This document shows positions 40,381 to 58,981 of a stretch of 64,000 nt of DNA, piece by piece. The first letter of the stretch is position 1. The number at the start of each line of letters is the position of its first letter. A model generated the notes under the pieces. It was not told where the DNA came from. It did not search any database and was given only the letters and a program-made list of their open reading frames with translations. The DNA is from an uncultured Bacteroidia bacterium (GTDB lineage Bacteria; CAIWAD01; BS150m-G50), in contig CAZCRT010000008.1 of assembly GCA_964501185.1 (NCBI GenBank), forward strand, positions 22,677-86,676. Direction: 5' to 3'. Both the position numbers and the translations under genes were made by a program.

Positions 40381-41142
40381 TCACACTGAGATCAGGCTGC
40401 GAATTTTATTCTTCAGGTTAATGATAATCTTGGTATGAATCTGCGAAACACGGGATTCACTGATGTCCAGCACCTGGCCGATTTCCTTAAGTGTCAATTC
40501 CTCGTAATAGTAAAGGGCCATTACCAGTTTTTCCTGTTCCGGCAGCGAATTGATGAGCTTGACCATCAGGATCTTGATCTCCTTGCGTTCCATGATATCA
40601 AGCGGACTGTCATTGTGCTGATTCTCGACAACATCGTAAAGGCTTGTAGTCTGTCCTTCGTCAGAACCCATTGGATGATCGAAGGAGAGCAATGAGGTGG
40701 CGGACACCTCGTCCAGCAATTTATGATAATCAGAAAGAGTGAGTTCCAGCTTGACAGCGAGTTCCTCGTCAGTAGGTACGCGGTTAAGTTCCTCTTCCAG
40801 AGCAACCATCGCCTTACTCACCATTCGTTCCTTGGCTCTGATTGAACGGGGTACCCAGTCATAGTCACGCAGCCCATCAAGAATTGCACCACGAATACGT
40901 GGCACAGCGTAGGTTTCGAACTTGAAGCCGAGGGCAGGGTCAAAGTGATCAACCGAGTTTATCAGACCCATTGTTCCTGCGCCAACCAGATCGTCAAGGA
41001 CAACAGAGTTGGGTAATGATACTTTCATGCGGCTGGCTACAATTTTAACCAACGGCAGGTAATTGACCAGCAGCTGCTCCTTGAGTGCCGGATCCCGGTT
41101 GGTCTGAAACTCAGCCCAGACGGTTTTCATATCGTCAGACAT
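40381..41142 (-). CDS. fliA: Flagellar sigma-28 factor (FliA/WhiG family)
   Basis: Sigma-70 region 2 (DLVGAGTMGLINSVDHFDP..YAVPRIRGAI) and region 4 HTH (LTLKEIGQVLDISESRVSQIH). Sits downstream of flhF/flhG. Confidence 0.9.
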   Translation of the reverse strand: MSDDMKTVWAEFQTNRDPALKEQLLVNYLPLVKIVASRMKVSLPNSVVLDDLVGAGTMGLINSVDHFDPALGFKFETYAVPRIRGAILDGLRDYDWVPRSIRAKERMVSKAMVALEEELNRVPTDEELAVKLELTLSDYHKLLDEVSATSLLSFDHPMGSDEGQTTSLYDVVENQHNDSPLDIMERKEIKILMVKLINSLPEQEKLVMALYYYEELTLKEIGQVLDISESRVSQIHTKIIINLKNKIRSLISV

Positions 41143-41145
41143 GAT

Positions 41146-41457
41146 TTATTCCTTTTCTGCTTCAGAGGATTCAGATGATTCACTTGCCGCCTGCGGGCTA
41201 TGCGCCGCCTGTGGTGGCATGCCAACAGGTGTTGGTACTTTTCTCCTCTGTTCCAACTGCCAGTAATTATAAGTAACCAGCCCCAGTAAAACCAGAATTG
41301 AATAAGTAGCCCAGACTATCAGGGCACGACTCAGAATGGTCCAGAGGGAGAAATCAAACCAGGCGCCCAGAACTATGGTCACCAGCAGGATTATCTGCCC
41401 GAGCTGTTGCCATAACTGTTTGTTGTTGTCCTGATCACTCTTGTGTTGAACACTCAT
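41146..41457 (-). CDS. Small membrane protein (2 TM)
   Basis: 103 aa with two hydrophobic helices, between flhG-like and fliA. Confidence 0.4.
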   Translation of the reverse strand: MSVQHKSDQDNNKQLWQQLGQIILLVTIVLGAWFDFSLWTILSRALIVWATYSILVLLGLVTYNYWQLEQRRKVPTPVGMPPQAAHSPQAASESSESSEAEKE

Positions 41458-41464
41458 AGTATTC

Positions 41465-42169
41465 TCAATTATTTATATCCATGATATCAGATTTCCTCTG
41501 ACTGGAGTAGTGATATTGCCAGCTTATCAATGGTAGTCTGGAGGACCGCAGGAATACCGCTGCTTCCCTGAGTACTTCGACAAAAGCATCTGCATTCTCT
41601 GCCGGGATAGATTTCCCCTCAGCATCAGTATGCAGGCCTGACAACATTCCCAGGCAGGGTGGTGATACGCCAAACCACTGTCGAGTCAGATTGGTGAACA
41701 CGTCCAGTGGTGTTTCCTTGTTTTCAGGATCAGTTACATCTGCTTCTGTCCGGTTCATTAACAGGTAGAGTGGGCGTTCCAGATAATGATGCAGGTTTCT
41801 ACTGAAAAAACCAAAACTGCGCAGTAATTCTCTACTCTCATCAGGCAACACAAGTATGAAATCGTCTATCAGTGTATCACAACCATCAATAGAATCGAGC
41901 AGGATGAAATCATATCTCTGTGATAACCTGCGCCATTCCGCTTTTCGTTCCCGGTAAATCCTGTTGAATTCAGCGCTGTTCAACCTGCTGGGTCTGGCTG
42001 ATGTCATCACAGCTTCTTCCTGTGGTGAATCGCTGACCAGCAGTACTTTTTCACCAACTATCCTCAATGATACAGCCAGCACCTGAGCAATAAGAGATAT
42101 CCTGCTGTTACTGCTCTCAGCATGCAGAAGGATTACTCTGGGTCCACTGTTTTGAGTACTGTGATACAT
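41465..42169 (-). CDS. FlhG/MinD-family protein with degenerate Walker A (predicted non-ATPase)
   Basis: In the FlhG position. RVILLHAESSNSRISLIAQVLAVSLRIVGEKVLLV aligns to RVIAVTSGKGGVGKTT...NLA.ALA..GKRVLLL, with GKGGVGKT replaced by AESSNSRI. A Walker-B-like YDFILLDS is retained. Confidence 0.6.
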   Translation of the reverse strand: MYHSTQNSGPRVILLHAESSNSRISLIAQVLAVSLRIVGEKVLLVSDSPQEEAVMTSARPSRLNSAEFNRIYRERKAEWRRLSQRYDFILLDSIDGCDTLIDDFILVLPDESRELLRSFGFFSRNLHHYLERPLYLLMNRTEADVTDPENKETPLDVFTNLTRQWFGVSPPCLGMLSGLHTDAEGKSIPAENADAFVEVLREAAVFLRSSRLPLISWQYHYSSQRKSDIMDINN

Positions 42170-43284
42170 CAGTCGTCCTTTACCGGGAATCCATTTCCAT
42201 CAAGCAGCCAGGAAGCTATCAGAGATGGCCGCAAACTCAGCATATCCTCCGGGATTCGCTGGCCATTACCCAGGAAACTGAATACCGGCTTAATATCACA
42301 GGCGAGATTCAGGACATTGCCCAGGGTTCCAGTTTCATCAAGTTTGGTAAGAAGTATTCTATTGAAATTTATCTGACGATATTCTCTTACCATCCGGTTC
42401 AGGTCGGAGTACTTTGTGTTCAGTGGCAATACCAGATGGGTTTCCGAAGGCGCCGCCAGCTCCAGCATCTTCTCAACATCACGCAGCTGTTTCCCCGCAC
42501 GCCAGGAAGCCCCCGGCGTATCTATCAGTATAACCTCACAGTGCTGCAGTTCGCGCAGGGCGGGCTTGATTTCCTTTTCACGATACACCAGCCTGAGATC
42601 AGCTTTGACGATCTCTGCAAACACCTGCAGTTGTTGCGCAGCTGCCAGTTTCTTTGTGTCAAGACTGAGGATTCCCAGACGACGATTCCCAAAGAAGGAC
42701 CGATTTGCAGCCAGCTTTATGAGACTGGCGGTTTTACCTGCCCCGGTCGGGCCGATAAATGCCAGCTTCAGTGCCGTTCCATCAGTGTTGGAAGGTATGC
42801 CTGATGCGCGGAAACGCCGGGCAATCCAACGTGCGGCCCTTTCCTGCATGAGTTTGTGAGAGCGCAGTTCTCTGGGTGTAGCGCTCATCTGCAGGTCCTG
42901 CAAAAGCTCCTGTATCACGTTACTGTTTACTTCCATCCGGTGCAGATGGTTTGCCAGGTTGGAAAGTGTCGGCCAGGGCGATTTACCTTCCGGACGCCCC
43001 ATCTGTTGTTGCAGTTCCTGAATAGACCGGGCCAGCTGCTGCATTTCCCCCTGGAGTGCAGCCGGAGGAGCTATTCCGGCAGCCCCTGAAGAACCGGGAG
43101 GTGTAGAGGGGTGGATACTGTCAGCAGATTGTCCGACAACTACTTCATAACTCCAGCCATATTCCGGACCCGCAGGATGGTTGCGCCGGCCTGATTCAAC
43201 GATAACAACATCATCGCCGTTTTCCCGCTTTATCTTGCTCATGATATCACGGTAGTTAGTGCCGGTGTAGGATTTCGTTTCCAT
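42169..43284 (-). CDS. flhF: Flagellar biosynthesis GTPase FlhF
   Basis: SRP-type GTPase motifs GPTGAGKT and DTPG, basic N-domain, sits between flhA and flhG-like. Confidence 0.85.
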   Translation of the reverse strand: METKSYTGTNYRDIMSKIKRENGDDVVIVESGRRNHPAGPEYGWSYEVVVGQSADSIHPSTPPGSSGAAGIAPPAALQGEMQQLARSIQELQQQMGRPEGKSPWPTLSNLANHLHRMEVNSNVIQELLQDLQMSATPRELRSHKLMQERAARWIARRFRASGIPSNTDGTALKLAFIGPTGAGKTASLIKLAANRSFFGNRRLGILSLDTKKLAAAQQLQVFAEIVKADLRLVYREKEIKPALRELQHCEVILIDTPGASWRAGKQLRDVEKMLELAAPSETHLVLPLNTKYSDLNRMVREYRQINFNRILLTKLDETGTLGNVLNLACDIKPVFSFLGNGQRIPEDMLSLRPSLIASWLLDGNGFPVKDD

Positions 43285-43371
43285 TGTTGATTCCTCTATG
43301 CTGTATCACATGATCGTGTGGCTGTACTTCGGGATTTACGACCTTAAATTCATGTATAGTCTGTTCGACGA

Positions 43372-45504
43372 TCAGGCTTCACTGCCGGCTACGATCGCTT
43401 CCTTCTCTCTATCTTCCTGCCCTGCTTTCAGATTGCGGTGTGAAATCACTCCACAGGATTCTACTTCCACGCTGGGGATGAGTTCGCTGTACGAAACCAG
43501 ACTGAGATCAGGCAGCGAACTCTCGAGCAGTTTACGGAGGTATGGCCTGATGGTCGGTGCTGTCAGAAGCACGCCCCTGCGCCCCTGGGTTGACATCTCT
43601 TCAGAGAGATCCCGGATCTGGCGGATAAGAGCCGCAAAAACTTCCGGCGTAAGGCTCAAAGCGCGTCCCTGGGCAGTCTGCTCAAGTTCCCGGCTGAACA
43701 TTTCTTCCAGTTCCGGGTCGAGTGTCATACAGTAGATACGCCCATCTTCATTCTGGTATATCCTGGTGATAGTCTGGTTCAACGAGAAACGGGCATACTC
43801 GTTCAGAATCTCCACATCCTTGGTTGAAGGAGCGTAGTCTGCCAGTGTCTCCAGAATCGTCGTCAGATCCCGGATGGGGATACCCTCCTTCAACAGACGC
43901 TGGAGGACCTTATGTATCACACCCAGGCTGAGCAGATTGGGATAGAGCTCATCGACCAGTGCCGGGTTATCCTTTTTGATATTTTCAATCAGGTTCATCG
44001 CATCCTGGCGGCCGAGTATACGCCACGAGCTTTTTTGTATCACGTCAACCAGATGTGTCGCCAGTACTGCCGGTGCTTCGATTACGGCATAGCCCAGCAG
44101 TTCAGCCCTCTCCCTGATTTCCTCTCGTATCCAGGTTGCCGGCATGCCAAATGTCGGTTCCGTGGTCTTGAAACCGTCAATCTCCTCGTCAGCTTCCCCG
44201 GCGTTCAGCGCCAGATGATAGCCAACCTTGATTTCACCCTGTGCTACTTCAATACCACGGATTTTGATCGTGTACTCTTCCGGCTTCAGCTGAATATTAT
44301 CGCGAATGCGTATTGGCGGAATAATGATACCGAGATCCAGTGCCTGCTGTTTCCGGATAAGGGTAATACGGTTCAGCAGGTCACCATTCTGTTCCACATC
44401 GACCAGCGGAATGAGGCCGTAACCGATTTCAATTTCCATGGGATCGACATAGAGGAAGTCCTCGATATTTTCCTCTGCGGGCTCTTCCTGTGCTTCAGCT
44501 TCCGGTTCCTGTTGTTCACTCTTGCGTCCACTGCGCAGGGCCAGGGCGACGCTGCCGATTGCTATGGAAAGGATCATAAACGGAAGCGTGGGCAAACCGG
44601 GTACCAGCGCGAAAAACATGAGTACAAACGCTACAATGATGAGTGGCCGGATACGACTGAAGAGCTGAGCGGTTACATCATGCCCAAAGTTATTGCGGGC
44701 ACCGGCACGTGTTACAATTACACCGGCAGCCGTAGAGATGATCAGGGCAGGGATCTGGTTAACGAGACCGTCACCAACTGTAAGCAGAGTGTAGTTGGCA
44801 ATGGCTTCCGGGAAAGTCATACCCAGCTGAATCATACCGATAGCGAAACCACCAAGGATATTGATAGCGGTAATAATCAGACTGGCAATGGCATCACCCC
44901 GGACAAACTTGGAGGCACCATCCATTGCCCCATAGAAATCAGCCTCCTTGCTGATTTTCTCACGCCGCTGCCTGGCTTCCTGTTCGTCAATAACACCATT
45001 GTTGAGATCGGCGTCGATCGCCATCTGTTTACCCGGCATAGCGTCGAGTGTAAACCGGGCCGCTACCTCTGCAACACGCCCGGCACCCTTGGTAATGACG
45101 ATGAAGTTGATCAGTACCAGGATCAGGAAGACGATGAAACCGACGATGTAGTTGCCCTTGACCACGAAGCCACCGAAGGCGGAAATCACCTGCCCGGCGT
45201 AGCCATCACCCAGGATCAGCCGGGTAGAGGCGACATTAAGTGCCAATCGGAAAAGCGTGATCAGAAGCAGCAGACCGGGAAAGATGGAGAATTGGAGCGG
45301 CTCTGTATTGTAGATCGCAACCAGCAGGATGGTCAAGCCGATGGCAATATTGAGCGCCAGCAGCACATCCAGAAACGCTGCCGGCAGCGGAATGATCATC
45401 ATCACCAGGATACCGACAATACCCAGCGCTATCAGCACATCACTGCGTCGTGTCAGTGCCGAAAGGGTGTTATTACGCAGTGTGATACGATCGTCCATAC
45501 TCAT
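43372..45504 (-). CDS. flhA: Flagellar biosynthesis protein FlhA
   Basis: 710 aa; 8-TM N-domain with FlhA signatures (FPGLLL, TRLILGDG) and a large cytoplasmic domain. Confidence 0.95.
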   Translation of the reverse strand: MSMDDRITLRNNTLSALTRRSDVLIALGIVGILVMMIIPLPAAFLDVLLALNIAIGLTILLVAIYNTEPLQFSIFPGLLLLITLFRLALNVASTRLILGDGYAGQVISAFGGFVVKGNYIVGFIVFLILVLINFIVITKGAGRVAEVAARFTLDAMPGKQMAIDADLNNGVIDEQEARQRREKISKEADFYGAMDGASKFVRGDAIASLIITAINILGGFAIGMIQLGMTFPEAIANYTLLTVGDGLVNQIPALIISTAAGVIVTRAGARNNFGHDVTAQLFSRIRPLIIVAFVLMFFALVPGLPTLPFMILSIAIGSVALALRSGRKSEQQEPEAEAQEEPAEENIEDFLYVDPMEIEIGYGLIPLVDVEQNGDLLNRITLIRKQQALDLGIIIPPIRIRDNIQLKPEEYTIKIRGIEVAQGEIKVGYHLALNAGEADEEIDGFKTTEPTFGMPATWIREEIRERAELLGYAVIEAPAVLATHLVDVIQKSSWRILGRQDAMNLIENIKKDNPALVDELYPNLLSLGVIHKVLQRLLKEGIPIRDLTTILETLADYAPSTKDVEILNEYARFSLNQTITRIYQNEDGRIYCMTLDPELEEMFSRELEQTAQGRALSLTPEVFAALIRQIRDLSEEMSTQGRRGVLLTAPTIRPYLRKLLESSLPDLSLVSYSELIPSVEVESCGVISHRNLKAGQEDREKEAIVAGSEA

Positions 45505-46574
45505 GCTGCTTCACTTTTGTTCTGATAGACCAGTGCCAGCACTTCGGCAATGGCCTGATAGAAATCAACCGGTACTTCCACACCTACATCCACAACGTGA
45601 TACATTGCGCGGGTGAGGGGCGGATTTTCTATTACCGGAATATCGTTGTGCCCGGCAATTTCCCGGATACGCTCTGCGACCTTGCGGACCCCCTTGGCTA
45701 CGACACGGGGAGCGCGCATATTTTCCTGTTCATATTTGAGTGCGATAGCGTAATGTGTCGGGTTGGTGATCACAACATCCGCGTCCGGGACGTCATTCAG
45801 CATCCGCCGGAACGCCATCTCAAACTGCAGTGAACGGACATGTGATTTCAACAGCGGGTCACCCTCGGTCTGCTTACGCTCATCCTTGACTTCCTGTTTA
45901 GTCATCTTCAGTTTGCGCGAGTGTTCCCATTTCTGAAACCACCAGTCGAATGCTGCGATCGCGCTCAGGAAAACCGCAGTCCAAATGATCAGGTTGCGTG
46001 TACTTTCCGCAACTGCCATCAGCATGCCGGCGGTAGTCGAGTCACCCAGCCGGGAAAAATCTCCCAACTCGTTCTTTACTACCAGCCACGCGACAAATCC
46101 CACCACAGTGATCTTGACGAAGTTCTTCACCAGTTCGTTGAGAGAGCGGGTGGAGAAAATGTTCTTCAATCCCTTTACCGGGTTCATTTTATTGAAATCA
46201 GGTTTGATCGATTCGGCTGAAGCGAGGAAGCCAACCTGTGACAGATTGGCTGCCAGGCCGATAACCAGTACCAGCAGCATGAAGGGCAGCACCGCTCTGG
46301 CAGTAATACCCACACTGAAGCTGCCAATCTCCTGAACCTGATCGATTTCAACAGGCCAGCTGGATGCATGACTGTAGATGTAGCGGAATCCACCGGTGAT
46401 GGTCGCCATTATCTGACCACCCAGTATCATCAACGCCAGCAGGCCACCCAGAATCACGGCAGCGGAGTTAATCTCCATGCTCTTGGCGACGTTACCCTTC
46501 TTGCGTGCGTCATCGCGCCGCTTCTGGGTTGCCGGTTCTGTTTTGTCCTGGAAGGATGTCTGCTCATCAGCCAT
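45501..46574 (-). CDS. flhB: Flagellar biosynthesis protein FlhB
   Basis: 4-TM N-domain and NPTH autocleavage motif (VVITNPTHYAIAL). Confidence 0.95.
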   Translation of the reverse strand: MADEQTSFQDKTEPATQKRRDDARKKGNVAKSMEINSAAVILGGLLALMILGGQIMATITGGFRYIYSHASSWPVEIDQVQEIGSFSVGITARAVLPFMLLVLVIGLAANLSQVGFLASAESIKPDFNKMNPVKGLKNIFSTRSLNELVKNFVKITVVGFVAWLVVKNELGDFSRLGDSTTAGMLMAVAESTRNLIIWTAVFLSAIAAFDWWFQKWEHSRKLKMTKQEVKDERKQTEGDPLLKSHVRSLQFEMAFRRMLNDVPDADVVITNPTHYAIALKYEQENMRAPRVVAKGVRKVAERIREIAGHNDIPVIENPPLTRAMYHVVDVGVEVPVDFYQAIAEVLALVYQNKSEAA

Positions 46575-46826: not shown

Positions 46827-47879
46827 TTAGACTATCCGCAGCCCTTTACCATCGTAACCGGTAATCTCACCGATCAGGCAGGCGTTCTTGACACCATGTT
46901 CCAACAGGCTTTGCAGCAGTCGGTCACTCTCATTGCCAGCGACGGCAATCAGCAGGCCACCGGAAGTCTGTGGATCGTAGAGCAGTTGCTGATCTTTCCA
47001 GCTGATTTCCCGGTTGAATTCCAGTTCGGAAGCTACCTTTTCGTAGTTGGGCTTGTTGGCACCGGTACCGACTTTGTCGTAATACAACTCCTGCGCCTGT
47101 GTGAAAAATGGCAGCGACTCTAAGTTGATCCGCATGGTAACACCACTGGTGGCAGCCATCTTGCCGGCATGTCCGGCCAGGCCGAAACCGGTCACATCAG
47201 TACAGGCGTGTACCGTGAAATCTGTTAACACTTCTGCAGCGACGCGGTTGAGTGTAATCATCGACTCAATCACAGGTTCCAGATTCTCCGGCAGGGTTTT
47301 ACCGGCATTGTTACCGTTGATGATGACACCGGTACCGAGTGGTTTGGTGAGGATAAGCCTGTCTCCCGGTTGCGCTGTTGAGTTGCGCAGGATCCGGTCA
47401 GGATGTACCAGGCCATTGACCGACAGGCCGTATTTCGGCTCCGGATCATCGGTAGTATGTCCACCGATCAGTATTGCCCCCGCTTCACTGATCTTGCTCA
47501 AACCGCCGGCCAGCACCTGCTGAAAAACAGTCACATCCTGGGTACCGGGCAGCCCCAGCAGATTGAGAGCAGTAATCGGCCGCGCACCCATGGCATAAAT
47601 GTCACTCAATGCATTAGCAGCTGCTATCTGGCCGAATGTGTAGGGATCGTCAACCGGAGGGGTGATCCAGTCACCGGTAACTACCAGCGCCTGTTCATCC
47701 GATAGCCTGTAAACACCGGAATCATCACCGGTATCGATACCTACCAGGACATCTGAATCCTGTTGAGTATGCACATCAGCCAGTATTTTATCCAACCCGA
47801 CCGGGTCAATCTTGGCCGCTCAACCGCACTTGTGTGCCAGTGATGCCAGTCCCGGTTGATCTGTGAGGTGTAGTTTCAT
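46827..47879 (-). CDS. selD: Selenide, water dikinase (selenophosphate synthetase), Sec-containing, in-frame UGA at 47820-47822
   Basis: The track's ORF (TTG start at 47795) lacks the SelD N-terminus. Extending upstream in frame gives MKLHLTDQPGLASLAHKCG-U-AAKIDPVGLDKIL, which aligns to E. coli SHGAGC(17)GCK(20)ISPKVLETIL with UGA at the Cys17 position. The rest is a full-length SelD (AIR synthase-like). Confidence 0.85.
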
Positions 47880-51607: not shown

Positions 51608-52471
51608 ATGAGATTGTTCCGTCCAATAGCAAAAACAGGAACCACTATGCAGATGCAGAATCAGTACCGTCCATCGTTTCGTCAGATGCTTCCACAGGGG
51701 GTGCGCTGGCTACTGGGGCTCAATATCGGTATATTTCTCCTGCAGTCAATGATACCTTCCAATATCTGGTTGCGTGGTCTGGCGCTTATTCCTGCACAGG
51801 TCATTTCGGGAGCGCAGGTCTGGCGCCTGGTAACCTACATGTTTCTGCACGGTAGCCTCTGGCATCTGCTGATCAATATGCTGGTGCTCTGGATGTTTGG
51901 TGCTGAGCTGGAGCGACGCTGGGGGACCCGCGCGTTTCTGCGTTACTACTTCATTACCGGGATCGGTGCCGCACTGTTCGGATTCTTCACCTACCATGAT
52001 TACGTCATTGGTGCTTCCGGTGCTATCTACGCCCTGATGCTGGCGTACGGCCTGCTGTTCCCCAACCGTGTGATTTACCTGTATGCGGTTTTGCCTGTAA
52101 AGGCGAAATACTTCGTCATCGGATTACTGGGAATTTCTCTGCTCTCCGGTATTGGCGGTTCTTTTTCTGCCGGGCAATCGGGTGGTGGTATTGCCCACTT
52201 CGTACACCTGGGTGGAATGCTGGTCGGATTTGTCTACCTGCGCTGGGATCTGATTCAGAAATGGTGGCGGTCGTTTCAACATCAGAAGCGAATGCAGCAG
52301 CACAACCAGAAAAAAAATGTCGAAAAGGAAAAATTGCGTCAGGTCGAACAGCGGGTTGACGATCTACTGGCGCGCATCAGCGAGAATGGTTTTGATTCAC
52401 TCAGCGAGAAGGAAAAGACATTTCTGAAACAGGCCAGCGACTGGTTAGCCAGGCACAGAAAACATGAGTAA
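51608..52471 (+). CDS. Rhomboid family intramembrane serine protease
   Basis: GASGAIYAL (GxSG) and downstream His (HLGG). An alternative start is at 51644. Confidence 0.8.
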   Translation: MRLFRPIAKTGTTMQMQNQYRPSFRQMLPQGVRWLLGLNIGIFLLQSMIPSNIWLRGLALIPAQVISGAQVWRLVTYMFLHGSLWHLLINMLVLWMFGAELERRWGTRAFLRYYFITGIGAALFGFFTYHDYVIGASGAIYALMLAYGLLFPNRVIYLYAVLPVKAKYFVIGLLGISLLSGIGGSFSAGQSGGGIAHFVHLGGMLVGFVYLRWDLIQKWWRSFQHQKRMQQHNQKKNVEKEKLRQVEQRVDDLLARISENGFDSLSEKEKTFLKQASDWLARHRKHE

Positions 52472-53728: not shown

Positions 53729-53878
53729 TTAGCGATTCTCAGAAAGAATGGCCTTCGAATAATGTAGTAGATGAATCGCTTTTTAGTATTTCACACAGTG
53801 ATGTTCTGGTACAATTCCGTACGCATCGAAGAGTGAAATACTAACACTGATAGTACAAGCTGATGAAGGAGATTTGAG

Positions 53879-54127
53879 ATGCCCAGTTACAGCTACAAGT
53901 GTCTCGATTGCGGACATGAGTACACCATGTTCCAGAAGATGACTGACGAACCGCATAGCACCGGCTGCCCCATCTGCGAGGGCCGCGTGCATCGTCTGAT
54001 CGGTGCAGGTGCCGGTCTTGTGTTCAAGGGAACCGGTTTTTACATTACCGATTATAAGCGCAAAGAGAGTGCAGGAGCTGCTGTTGAATCCTCCGGTGGC
54101 TGCCAGGGTTGCAGCGCTAACAAATAA
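53879..54127 (+). CDS. FmdB-family zinc-ribbon protein
   Basis: MPSYSYKCLDCGHEY...CPICEG; 82 aa. Confidence 0.7.
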   Translation: MPSYSYKCLDCGHEYTMFQKMTDEPHSTGCPICEGRVHRLIGAGAGLVFKGTGFYITDYKRKESAGAAVESSGGCQGCSANK

Positions 54128-54181
54128 CTGCAGGTACGCCTGACCAGCAACCGGATGGCGTTTTGAAGTCGAGAGGAAACG

Positions 54182-54832
54182 ATGCCGATTATCAGTGACA
54201 AAGATCAACAGGTTGTGCGTGACATGTTCAATGTCATGGATAAACCGGTGAAGCTGGTTTTCTATGAGAAGACAGAAGATTGTCAGTACTGCGAGGAGAT
54301 AGACCAGCTGCTGAGTGAGCTGGTACAACTCTCTGATAAACTGACACTGGAAAAGAAAAACATCGACAGCGATCAGGAGCTGGCCGTTAAGCTGGCAGTT
54401 GATAAAGCACCCGCGATTGTGCTGCTGGGTGAAGATGATCATGATTATGGCATCCGTTTCTACGGTATTCCGGCCGGGTATGAATTCAGCGCTCTGCTGG
54501 AAGATATCACCATGGTCTCTCTGGGTGAGTCGGGGCTGCAGCATACAACCCGGACCGCATTGGAACAGCTGAAGGAACCGGTGAACCTGAAGGTGTTTGT
54601 CACACCCACCTGACCCCACTGCACACAGGCAGTTCGCCTGGCACATCAGATGGCCTATGAGCGAGAAAACATCACCGGTGAAATGGTGGAAGCACAGGAA
54701 TTTATGGCTCTATCACAGCGCTTCAAAGTGCGTGGTGTGCCACGTACGGTTGTGAACGACAGCAAATTCATCGATGGCGGCCTTCCGGAGCAGATGTTCC
54801 TGGAAAGGGTAGTGGAGCTGGTGAAGTTATAG
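54182..54832 (+). CDS. Glutaredoxin-like protein disulfide oxidoreductase (two Trx folds), predicted selenoprotein with in-frame UGA at 54611-54613
   Basis: Track ORFs 54182-54613 and 54650-54832 are in the same frame, separated only by TGA. The read-through gives ...LKVFVTPT-U-PHCTQAVRLAHQMAYE...VPRTVVND. The first Trx unit carries CQYC and the second carries U-P-H-C in place of CPxC. Confidence 0.7.
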
Positions 54833-55022: not shown

Positions 55023-55232
55023 ATGATTACAGCCGATGTTTACATTGAGGACCTGGTAGAAGATTATCCTGCTTCGGTAGCTTTTCTGCTGGAACGGAAG
55101 ATCGTCTGTATCAAGTGTGGTGAACCGATCTGGGGTACACTGCGGGAAACGCTTGAACGGGGTGAGGTTGAGGATATCGGACAGTTTGTTAAAGACCTCA
55201 ATGAATTCCTGGCCAACTCAATAAACTCCTAG
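55023..55232 (+). CDS. DUF1858 redox-disulfide small protein
   Basis: VCIKCGEP motif; 69 aa. Confidence 0.6.
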   Translation: MITADVYIEDLVEDYPASVAFLLERKIVCIKCGEPIWGTLRETLERGEVEDIGQFVKDLNEFLANSINS

Positions 55233-55350: not shown

Positions 55351-55704
55351 GGGGACGTTCAGGATTCGACGGGCTGGAAGTGACTTGGATCTGCATGTCG
55401 AGGTGTTCCGTCTGCTCGTAAAAACAGCGGTAAACAATTTAGTTGCCAACGACAACTATGCACTCGCTGCTTAATATAAACTAAGCAGCTGTCCCTCCAG
55501 GGGGTGCCGTTACTCCTGGTCCGGACATCATTTCAACGGCTGGCGCAACCGATTGCCTCCAGCGGAAGCGTGAGATTAAGGAGGATAACTCCCCAGAGCC
55601 TGTCTGACGGCTTCGAAGGGGGCGAAAACTCGTAGTCAGACTAAGCATGTAGATGATCCCTGGTGCTCCTTTCCGGACGCGGGTTCAATTCCCGCCGTCT
55701 CCAC
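55351..55704 (+). ncRNA. ssrA: tmRNA (SsrA), standard one-piece form
   Basis: 5' GGGGACGTTCAGGATTCGACGGG resembles E. coli GGGGCTGATTCTGGATTCGACGGG. 5' GGGGACG pairs with 3' CGTCTCC. T-arm GCGGG-TTCAATT-CCCGC precedes the 3' acceptor strand and discriminator A. Tag reading frame GCC AAC GAC AAC TAT GCA CTC GCT GCT TAA at 55445-55474 encodes ANDNYALAA, with the resume codon 94 nt from the 5' end. Confidence 0.9.
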
Positions 55705-55707
55705 TTT

Positions 55708-55757
55708 TAAAAAACCCGTTCTGCTTGATACTCAAGGCAGGGCGGGTTTTTTTATTG
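55708..55757 (+). terminator. Rho-independent terminator after ssrA
   Basis: AAAAACCCG...CGGGTTTTTTT with an internal CTTGA/TCAAG hairpin and a T-run. Confidence 0.7.
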
Positions 55758-55805
55758 AGTATCCATCTTGTGAATTTCGAACCTCAAATCGGTCAACAGA
55801 AAACC

Positions 55806-56921
55806 ATGCTTAAATGCCCTGACTGCAAAGTAGCTCTCATCCAACACAGGGGCCGCCCTGGCGCTTACTGGAGTTGTCCCGAATGTGGTGGTCGGTCAGT
55901 GACTTTTCCCCTGTTGCGCAAAACTATACCTCGAGTGTTAGCGAACAGTCTCTGGCAAAGGGCAACTACAGCTGTCAAGTCTGGCGACCGACGCTGCCCA
56001 TCCTGTCATAGGATAATGGTTGAAGTACCGGTTGGTGCAGGCCCACAGTCAGACCAGCTTGACATCTGCACAAGTTGTCAGTTTGTGTGGTTTGACCACT
56101 CTGAGTTTGAGGCGTTACCTGTGGAATCTGGTTCGAAACGAACTGAAGTGGAGATTTCACCAGAAGGATGGCAATCTCTGGGGGGACTGGAACTCGATGT
56201 AATTCAAAGGGAGCAGGATGAAGCTGAATCGAATTGGATCGGACCTGATGGATTATGGAAATGGTGCTCATCCTATTTTGGTTTACCGGTTGAGTATGAT
56301 CCCGGATTTCTGCAGCGGTGGCCTTTGCTGACCTGGTTCATCATCTTCGTAGTTTCCACTGCCAGCCTGGCTGCTTTTCAACAATTTGAGCTTACGACGC
56401 AAGACTTCGGATTCATTCCTGCCGCCTGGTCCCGTTATGGCGGACTGTCTTTTCTAACAGCATTCTTTATTCATGGCGGTGTAACACATCTGCTGGTTAA
56501 CATGTATTTCTTGCTGGTCTTTGGTGATAACGTTGAAGATTGGCTGGGGCGCTGGAAATTTGTTCTGCTGTTAATCCTGGCTGCAGCGGGGGGAGCACTT
56601 GCGCATCTTCTGGGAAACCCATCCTCTACTATTCCACTGGTTGGTGCGAGCGGGGGAATATCAGGGGTAATTGCATTCTATGTGTTCAGGTTCCCCCATG
56701 CACGACTGGGTCAGTTTGTTCACATATTCATCATCATCAGATGGTTGCGCATGCCGGCATATATGTGGTTCTGCTACTGGATACTGTTGCAAATCACCGG
56801 CGTCTGGTTCCAACTTAAAGGATTCAGCCATGTGTCAGTATTATCACACGTGGGAGGGGCTGCGGTGGGTGTGCTCTTCTGGTGGGTGACCAGGAGACAG
56901 GATATCTCAACAAAACACTGA
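55806..56921 (+). CDS. Rhomboid family protease with N-terminal zinc-ribbon domain
   Basis: CPDCK...CPECGG zinc ribbon; rhomboid core GASGGISGV and HVGGAAVG. Start is moved downstream of the tmRNA. Confidence 0.8.
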   Translation: MLKCPDCKVALIQHRGRPGAYWSCPECGGRSVTFPLLRKTIPRVLANSLWQRATTAVKSGDRRCPSCHRIMVEVPVGAGPQSDQLDICTSCQFVWFDHSEFEALPVESGSKRTEVEISPEGWQSLGGLELDVIQREQDEAESNWIGPDGLWKWCSSYFGLPVEYDPGFLQRWPLLTWFIIFVVSTASLAAFQQFELTTQDFGFIPAAWSRYGGLSFLTAFFIHGGVTHLLVNMYFLLVFGDNVEDWLGRWKFVLLLILAAAGGALAHLLGNPSSTIPLVGASGGISGVIAFYVFRFPHARLGQFVHIFIIIRWLRMPAYMWFCYWILLQITGVWFQLKGFSHVSVLSHVGGAAVGVLFWWVTRRQDISTKH

Positions 56922-58023: not shown

Positions 58024-58479
58024 ATGAAAACAACATTGACAACCGCTATTCTGGTTTTGTTATTCGCTGGCAGTACTGCACGGGCAACCGGCAGTACCGG
58101 AATAGGCGTTATCATCGGGGAACCTACCGGTATCTGTGCCGTTAAAAAAATCAGTGACAGTAATTCTCTGGCTGCAGCACTGGCCTGGTCACTTGACAGC
58201 AACAGCTCAATGCACCTGCATGTGGATTATCTTTTTCAGCGGAACGACCTGCTGCCGTTACCTTTCTACTTCGGCATAGGTGGCAGGGTAAAACTGGTTG
58301 AGGATAACAATAACAACGAGTCAGATGCACATATCGGCCTGCGTATCCCGCTGGGTGTAACTTATCAGTTCACCGATTATCCGGTTGACTGTTTTTTCGA
58401 ACTTGTTCCGCTTTTCGATCTTTTACCGGGCACCGGTTTTGATCTGAACGCTGCCATCGGAATCAGGTACTATTTCTAG
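58024..58479 (+). CDS. Small outer-membrane beta-barrel-like protein (paralog 1)
   Basis: Signal peptide, alternating hydrophobic beta-strand pattern, C-terminal ...RYYF. Confidence 0.5.
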   Translation: MKTTLTTAILVLLFAGSTARATGSTGIGVIIGEPTGICAVKKISDSNSLAAALAWSLDSNSSMHLHVDYLFQRNDLLPLPFYFGIGGRVKLVEDNNNNESDAHIGLRIPLGVTYQFTDYPVDCFFELVPLFDLLPGTGFDLNAAIGIRYYF

Positions 58480-58516: not shown

Positions 58517-58981
58517 ATGAGAACAACACTCACAACCGCTATTCTGATGCTATTAATAGCGGGCAGTACCGTTAAAGCTGCCGACAGCGGTATGGGTGCC
58601 GGCTTCATCATCGGGGAACCTACAGGCATCTGCGCTGTTAACAAAATGAATGACAGTAACTCATTGGCTGCAGCAGTCGCCTGGTCACTCACCGGCAACA
58701 GCTCCCTGCATCTGCATATTGATGATCTCTTTTTTAGAAACGATCTGTTGGCTCTGCCATTCTATTATGGCGGTGGTATCAGGGTGCTGCTGGTTGAGAA
58801 TGGTGAGAATGAAGATGAAAACCGGGCTACCCGATTAGGTGTCCGGTTACCTCTGGGAGTCACCTATCAGTTCAAACCCCATCCGATCGACATGTTCTTC
58901 GAGGTGGTGCCGATCTTTGACCTGCTGCCAGGCACTGACTTTGATCTCAATGCAGCGGTTGGTGTGCGGTACTATTTCTGA
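58517..58981 (+). CDS. Small outer-membrane beta-barrel-like protein (paralog 2)
   Basis: About 55-60% identical to the upstream paralog, with the same C-terminal ...RYYF. Confidence 0.5.
   Translation: MRTTLTTAILMLLIAGSTVKAADSGMGAGFIIGEPTGICAVNKMNDSNSLAAAVAWSLTGNSSLHLHIDDLFFRNDLLALPFYYGGGIRVLLVENGENEDENRATRLGVRLPLGVTYQFKPHPIDMFFEVVPIFDLLPGTDFDLNAAVGVRYYF

Follow-up and report, generated by a model that had tools for sequence, protein, structure and literature searches.

A probable selenocysteine-containing protein disulfide oxidoreductase encoded across an in-frame UGA in an uncultured bacterium

Does a TGA codon in the middle of a well-conserved reading frame end a gene, separate two genes, or code for an amino acid? 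This question is raised by positions 54182–54832 (+ strand) of a 64,000-nucleotide stretch of DNA from an uncultured Bacteroidia bacterium (GenBank assembly GCA_964501185.1, contig CAZCRT010000008.1, positions 22,677 to 86,676), the whole of which we analysed and call here the window. The frame has 217 codons counting its terminal TAG, and its sole internal stop is the TGA at 54611–54613. In a mechanical list of open reading frames (ORFs) it appears as two entries in identical frame, 54182–54613 (143 aa) and 54650–54832 (60 aa), and translation through the TGA gives ...NLKVFVTPT-U-PHCTQAVRLAHQMAYE...GVPRTVVND..., where U stands for selenocysteine (Sec). We propose that 54182–54832 is one gene, made of 216 codons including one Sec codon and then TAG, for a cytoplasmic protein disulfide oxidoreductase (PDO) that has 216 residues and belongs to the TIGR02187 family, with its UGA recoded as Sec. 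On the basis of the comparisons presented below, we estimate the probability of this reading at roughly 0.93. An earlier, sequence-only reading of the window had described two same-frame ORFs split only by this TGA, which the layout and translation of the locus bear out, and had proposed a redox selenoprotein with Sec in place of Cys. The latter proposal agrees with the position of the TGA at an invariant Cys column, the family match, the selection acting downstream, a hairpin of the bacterial Sec insertion sequence (bSECIS) type and the presence of a Sec-type selD gene.

Family membership and coding status of the UGA

With U replaced by C, the read-through protein reaches 279.6 bits with the NCBIfam model TIGR02187.2 ("PDO_seleno_TRX"; curated cutoff 185), and the match extends over residues 6–212 of the protein and positions 2–208 of the 209 in the profile. 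This family also goes by "AhpF N-terminal domain homolog", and the name that NCBI gives it already includes "seleno". Thioredoxin-type Pfam matches occur in both halves (residues 21–86 and 135–211), and the best match among solved structures is the PDO of Pyrococcus furiosus (PfPDO; PDB 1A8L), with E = 9.4e-50 over residues 1–212. The Pfam matches and the end-to-end alignment with 1A8L imply, through sequence homology, a single polypeptide with two thioredoxin-fold units in tandem. The N-terminal unit carries the redox motif CQYC (residues 34–37; 54281–54292, + strand), where the sequence-only reading had also seen it, and its C34 and C37 are invariant in an alignment of 18 sequences. The C-terminal unit carries the predicted active-site motif U-P-H-C (UxxC; residues 144–147; 54611–54622, + strand), with Sec144 in the first and Cys147 in the last position. 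This motif belongs to the family pattern VFVTPT-[C/U]-P-x-C, in which V138–T143, P145 and C147 are invariant across the 18 aligned sequences; in the alignment with 1A8L, VFVTPT-C-PYC stands opposite VFVTPT-U-PHC. The PDO/glutaredoxin-like identity put forward earlier is thus upheld by the full-length TIGR02187 match and by the match to PfPDO. An identity as AhpF was rejected: TIGR03140 gives 76.7 bits where its cutoff asks for 502.9 and is matched at profile positions 7–195 of 515 only, and the protein, with its 216 aa, is devoid of the C-terminal flavoprotein reductase module. The read-through product of 54182–54832 is a full-length member of TIGR02187 and matches the known selenoprotein family in every testable feature.

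The column opposite the TGA is informative as to what this codon encodes. A search in a collection of 5.8 billion proteins returned 3279 homologs, and the full-length ones (~50% identity) cover 97–100% of the query and hence span the stop position. The sequence-only reading had suggested verifying whether Cys-containing homologs align across the UGA and whether the frame is conserved beyond it. They do align: the column holds Cys in 17 of 17 full-length homologs, inside an invariant V-F-V-T-P-T-C-P-x-C block. In each of the four nearest clusters (83–92% identity) the protein on record is 143 aa long. Seven contigs from relatives, with a shared synteny consisting of a HIT protein, an FmdB zinc ribbon and then the split gene, keep the TGA without exception (7/7) and have the gene divided into 143 aa and 62 aa. 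The JGI and ENA calls for these relatives consist of the same two pieces, labelled "glutaredoxin-like protein", as the sequence-only reading had foreseen for automated pipelines. The inferred Sec codon for residue 144 (54611–54613, + strand) is therefore both aligned with Cys and kept as TGA in relatives.

The Sec form is not confined to these close relatives. A search for the exact back-translation of VFVTPT-TGA-P-x-C in 185,579 species, each represented by one genome, found the motif in at least 120 species genomes. When aligned with the window protein by BLASTP, all of the 120 matches listed prove to be true homologs with an alignment that crosses the TGA, and in 103 of them it spans both domains. 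The matches listed come mostly from uncultured Chloroflexota, Acidobacteriota and Actinomycetes; by taxon they include Chloroflexota, Acidobacteriota/Terriglobia/Vicinamibacterales, Actinomycetes/Gaiellaceae, Ignavibacteria, Armatimonadota, Bacillota, NC10, Zixibacteria, Delongbacteria and others, the cultured Bacillota among them being Alicyclobacillus tolerans and A. mengziensis. The closest among the matches listed, at 73% identity, is found in a Candidatus Delongbacteria metagenome-assembled genome (MAG) from the Black Sea (L118). A Chloroflexota MAG (JAYNIL01) carries two separate matches (L055 and L113). Since the same TGA occurs in 7/7 close relatives and in all the listed homologs from species genomes, its pattern cannot be attributed to chance.

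The TGA could in principle be a true stop, produced by a nonsense mutation, pseudogenization or a sequencing error, that leaves a truncated 143-residue single-domain product and a downstream part that is decaying or untranslated. Gene callers do end the ORF there, TGA serves as a normal stop in other genes of the window, and selD is the only gene for Sec decoding visible in it. However, the TGA stands at the same column in seven metagenome contigs that are independent of one another and in the genomes of at least 120 species, the family is already recognised as a selenoprotein family, and the truncated product would end precisely one residue short of the active site. The substitution pattern points in the same direction. 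Between the window and close relatives, the 70 codons downstream of the TGA have a ratio of non-synonymous to synonymous change (dN/dS) of 0.03–0.07, at a proportion of synonymous differences (pS) of 0.41–0.65, that is, a constraint equal to that of the upstream part (dN/dS 0.05–0.13). A true stop appears extremely improbable in view of these data.

The conserved frame also bears on the possibility of two genes, a 143-aa thioredoxin-like protein followed by an independently initiated 60-aa fragment starting at ATG 54650. Both ORFs exist mechanically and appear in public gene calls, and the second fragment by itself matches PF13192. Nevertheless, the 12 codons that separate the TGA from ATG 54650 (PHCTQAVRLAHQ), which such a fragment would leave untranslated, are conserved at the protein level (proportion of non-synonymous differences, pN, 0–0.056; pS 0.33–0.38) and hold the resolving Cys147 together with the family-invariant P145, A150, V151, A154 and H155. 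A product starting at M157 would be without any CxxC motif, and the Cys-type homologs are all single polypeptides. Upstream of the internal ATG we found no Shine-Dalgarno motif comparable to the GAGAGGA (54171–54177, + strand) that can be read in the sequence 4 nt 5' of ATG 54182; a scan for promoters and terminators around the PDO gene yielded nothing beyond chance. The strong purifying selection downstream of the TGA, which extends to the 12 codons that precede ATG 54650, answers the second of the two verifications mentioned above in the affirmative, and argues strongly against a pseudogene, a sequencing error and two independently translated genes. We regard the two-gene arrangement as exceedingly unlikely and consider a single gene, translated through the UGA, in what follows.

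A candidate SECIS element downstream of the UGA

The sequence-only reading had placed a hairpin with G/U in its loop 13 nt 3' of the UGA, and it is present exactly there: CAGGC-AGUUC-GCCUG (54626–54640) begins 13 nt past the A of the UGA. Its upper stem CAGGC/GCCUG is formed by 54626–54630 and 54636–54640, and its apical loop AGUUC (54631–54635) has G at position 2 and then U at position 3. With a lower extension of 3 bp (UGC/GCA), this candidate bacterial SECIS covers 54620–54643 (+ strand) and folds at -8.5 kcal/mol. The bSECIS consensus that we used, with its constraints as quoted in a 2026 review (PMC13188914), has an apical loop of 3–9 nt, an upper stem of 4–16 bp, a G within the first two loop positions that is usually followed by G or U, a distance of 16–37 nt from UGA to loop and a minimum free energy (MFE) of at most -7.5 kcal/mol. 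The window hairpin, with a 5-nt loop, a 5-bp upper stem, 17 nt between UGA and loop and -8.5 kcal/mol, lies within all four limits. Comparison with the bSECIS model, which the sequence-only reading had recommended, thus came out in favour of its proposal. Considered alone, the window hairpin is statistically indistinguishable from background.

That last point is one of several that weigh against recoding by means of a SECIS. The 60 nt following the UGA give single-sequence fold z-scores of -1.13 and -0.86. When synonymous codons are resampled in the window gene alone, an equal or better hairpin arises in 22% of cases (p = 0.22), and for the longest invariant run among the close relatives an unbiased permutation test yields P = 0.078. 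In the 120 Sec-type sequences, taken without selection, the register of the window's upper helix pairs in 53% of cases against 52% in shuffles. Rfam returned no SECIS-type match, either in the whole window at the gathering threshold or in 54500–54800 at E <= 10; the matches near the gene are limited to ArcZ and flpD, both at chance level and on the opposite strand, and are uninformative with respect to SECIS. Finally, selA, selB and tRNA-Sec were not found among the large ORFs or in the sequence of the 64-kb window, nor on the contigs of the relatives, so that the decoding machinery has to be deduced from the Sec-type selD only.

Conservation among close relatives is suggestive at most. The longest invariant codon run of the gene (8 codons, 54629–54652) coincides with the hairpin, nucleotides 54628–54654 do not vary, and none of the 7 degenerate codons at the hairpin varies, compared with 90 of 162 elsewhere (Fisher p = 0.004, for a region chosen post hoc). 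Four helices predicted in the window were tested for covariation in the 120 Sec-type sequences, and a single SECIS structure common to the whole family was rejected. A lower helix sequestering the UGA (CUGA/UCAG) was likewise rejected, as it pairs in 56% of the sequences against 55% in shuffles; the outermost helix pairs in 86% against 82% in shuffles, but two out of its three pairs never vary.

The stronger evidence comes from comparing whole sets of genes. Among the matches listed, 119 of the 120 Sec-type genes have a qualifying hairpin; energies of -5 kcal/mol or below occur in 85% of the Sec-type genes and in 22% of shuffles. The mean hairpin energy is -8.2 kcal/mol in Sec-type genes versus -3.1 in synonymous resamples encoding the same proteins (Wilcoxon p = 7e-21). 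It also differs between Sec-type genes (-8.25 kcal/mol) and 119 Cys-type genes (-2.80; Mann-Whitney p = 2e-23), the latter being genes with the same motif from metagenomes, with the caveat that the two sets come from different collections; the difference holds within GC bands. The value of -6.7 obtained for the window is an ordinary one among Sec-type genes of the same GC band, whose mean is -6.4, and no more than 13% of the Cys-type genes attain it. The window hairpin is thus very probably a SECIS, with support that is comparative and not intrinsic to the single sequence. Taken together, the single gene, its family membership, the Sec/Cys alignment, the conservation of the UGA, the selection downstream and the hairpin fitting the bSECIS model are directly supported.

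Across the family, the hairpin is not uniform. The best hairpin is spaced 17 nt from the UGA in 62 genes, 22 nt in 30 and 18–21 nt in 23, loops have 3, 5 or 6 nt, and the register differs between lineages: a spacing of 17 nt goes with a loop of 5 or 6 nt, and one of 22 nt with a loop of 3 nt.

selD, decoding of the UGA and predicted chemistry

The window contains a gene for selenide, water dikinase, selD (46827–47879, - strand; TIGR00476, 370.5 bits versus a cutoff of 125), which is of the Sec type: its in-frame UGA (47820–47822) occupies the known Sec position (..LAHKCG-U-AAKIDP..). The Sec-type selD announced by the sequence-only reading therefore exists, but at a distance of ~6.3 kb from the PDO gene instead of the 7 kb given there. 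A candidate selD SECIS, UUGACCC-GGUC-GGGUUGG (47792–47809, - strand), lies 17 nt after the selD UGA and has a 7-bp stem and a 4-nt loop starting with GG. The stem-loop alone folds at -5.7 kcal/mol, and the MFE fold of the 60 nt (-14.5) shares only the inner 5 bp with it. The hairpins of selD and of the PDO gene have an identical 17-nt spacing from the UGA. As to its genomic context, selD adjoins flagellar export genes and not selA or selB: a flagellar block (40381–46574, - strand) with flhB, flhA, flhF, an unassigned 234-aa ORF and a FliA/WhiG sigma factor lies directly downstream of it on the same strand. A SelD that itself contains Sec presupposes a functioning machinery for Sec decoding.

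A last possibility is that the UGA is read as a standard amino acid, Cys or Trp, through near-cognate decoding, a lineage-specific reassignment or a suppressor tRNA. The failure to find selA, selB and tRNA-Sec in the window would fit this explanation, as would a window hairpin that is statistically unremarkable when taken alone. On the other side, no ordinary stop codon is commoner in the window than TGA, with which 19 of 43 genes, rho, prfA, cysS, flhA and flhB among them, finish at their expected ends; the genetic code is therefore standard, and a global reassignment of UGA was rejected. Moreover, a systematic scan of the window for frames interrupted by TGA retrieved a credible Sec context in two cases only, the PDO gene and selD, and both TGAs sit at the known Sec positions of their families. 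The hairpin, in addition, occurs at a specific position in Sec-type and not in Cys-type genes, as predicted by SelB-dependent decoding. Reading of the UGA as a standard amino acid is thus very unlikely, and insertion of Sec is the interpretation that we retain.

We infer the insertion of Sec, the chemistry of the protein and its reductant from the features described above, and they can be combined into the following scheme. During translation, the stem-loop at 54620–54643 would bring SelB, loaded with Sec-tRNA(Sec), to the ribosome, leading to the insertion of Sec instead of termination. The selenophosphate donor would be made by the product of the selD gene located 6.3 kb away, SelD itself being a predicted selenoprotein. 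In thioredoxin-fold proteins the first position of the CPxC motif is the attacking residue, and characterised PDOs are more reactive at their C-terminal site than at the N-terminal one. Sec144 would replace this attacking Cys of the C-terminal CPxC site, and its selenolate would attack the disulfide of the substrate to form a mixed selenenylsulfide. Cys147 would then resolve the mixed intermediate, giving rise to an intramolecular Se-S bond (selenenylsulfide). The PDOs of solved structure are reduced by thioredoxin reductase, and the Se-S bond would most likely be re-reduced by a thioredoxin-reductase-type partner, as in the characterised members; no gene of this type adjoins the PDO gene in the window.

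Genomic surroundings, known relatives and significance

Several other elements are located around the PDO gene. A transfer-messenger RNA (tmRNA) gene (55351–55706, + strand; Rfam, 187.9 bits) with the tag peptide ANDNYALAA lies ~0.5 kb 3' of it. The adjacency of PDO and tmRNA genes is kept in a close relative (L002, 2764–3117) and in the Delongbacteria MAG (L118, 3335–3688), the tag peptide of the latter being identical to that of the window. Directly 3' of the PDO gene, a 69-aa ORF (55023–55232, + strand) contains a C-x-x-C motif (..KIVCIKCGEPIWG..) and has no Pfam or NCBIfam match; relatives carry a 70-aa ORF at the matching relative position (for instance L002, 2420–2632). The locus is flanked by two genes for rhomboid-family intramembrane proteases (51608–52471 and 55653–56921, both + strand), the second of which encodes an N-terminal zinc-ribbon domain (PF13453 and PF01694). 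The mechanical 422-aa ORF begins at 55653, still within the 3' end of the tmRNA gene, and its true start is probably further downstream. On the opposite strand, a 287-aa ORF (53783–54646, - strand) runs across the FmdB gene and the greater part of the PDO gene; in view of the strong purifying selection on the + strand frame, it is more likely a product of mechanical ORF listing than a gene. Further away, two tandem paralogous DUF3996 ORFs (58024–58479, 151 aa, and 58517–58981, 154 aa, both + strand) follow one another, and a DUF3996 ORF also occurs in the relative L002.

Among proteins of solved structure, PfPDO (1A8L) shares with the window protein the end-to-end alignment, the CQYC of the N-terminal unit and the VFVTPT-x-P-x-C of the C-terminal unit. 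Further PDO structures related to 1A8L are 1J08, 2HLS and 2AYT/2YWM, the last pair annotated as "glutaredoxin-like protein" and coming from Aquifex. The solved PDOs, which come from hyperthermophiles, have Cys (CPYC) where the window protein would have Sec (UPHC). The N-terminal domain of AhpF (PDB 1HYU, 1ZYN) resembles the window protein in having tandem thioredoxin folds with a redox CxxC in the second unit, with a homology of E = 2e-9 to 2e-8; the window protein differs from AhpF by the lack of an FAD/NADH reductase module and by an additional CxxC in its first unit. In single-domain Sec thioredoxins and glutaredoxins, such as those of Treponema denticola and Clostridium oremlandii, Sec likewise stands at the first Cys of CxxC, but these proteins belong to PF00085 and PF00462 and the window protein is a two-unit PDO. 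A catalytic advantage of Sec in such single-domain proteins is reported in the 2026 review (PMC13188914).

The family itself has been described before. The same review (PMC13188914) lists the TIGR02187 selenoprotein family, with its UxxC motif, as "predicted with high confidence", notes it in Asgard archaea and credits its first listing to Kryukov and Gladyshev (2004). The reference Sec-type example is ABB15282.1 from Carboxydothermus hydrogenoformans. With the catalogued Sec-type members, the window gene shares the family model, the Sec position in UxxC, the two-unit architecture and the hairpin in the downstream coding region, and we found no functional difference from them. The lineage, by contrast, is different: the closest named genome listed for the window gene is the Candidatus Delongbacteria MAG, and not one from Firmicutes or Actinobacteria. 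The review also summarises criteria based on Sec/Cys pairs for bacterial selenoprotein genes (PMC13188914); of the features concerned, the window gene shows a UGA aligned with Cys, coding conservation downstream, UGA-containing orthologs elsewhere and agreement with the bSECIS model, and of the decoding genes selA, selB, selC (tRNA-Sec) and selD the window contains selD. Earlier work has thus described the family, the place of its Sec and the way in which the UGA is recoded, and the window gene is a further member in a Delongbacteria-like lineage.

Two aspects are mildly new. A comparative study of 2006 (PMC1794560) reported Sec-type members in two genomes, those of Carboxydothermus hydrogenoformans and Symbiobacterium thermophilum, and the Sec form is now found in at least 120 species genomes; in addition, the register of the hairpin is variable within one orthologous family. 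It is conceivable, although we advance it as a tentative suggestion and would not favour it at present, that the Sec form of PDO is far more widespread than catalogued and that the existence of at least three SECIS registers implies repeated remodelling of the element or independent conversions from Cys to Sec.

This case is one more data point for where a thioredoxin-fold selenoprotein occurs and opens no new biology. Its value lies in annotation. Gene calls for this lineage, and for many metagenome assemblies, break the gene up into "glutaredoxin-like" fragments of 143 aa and ~60 aa, by which the active-site residue is lost and the use of selenium by the organism goes unrecorded. The corrected annotation marks this organism as a probable Sec user, with at least two predicted selenoproteins, SelD and PDO, within 64 kb.

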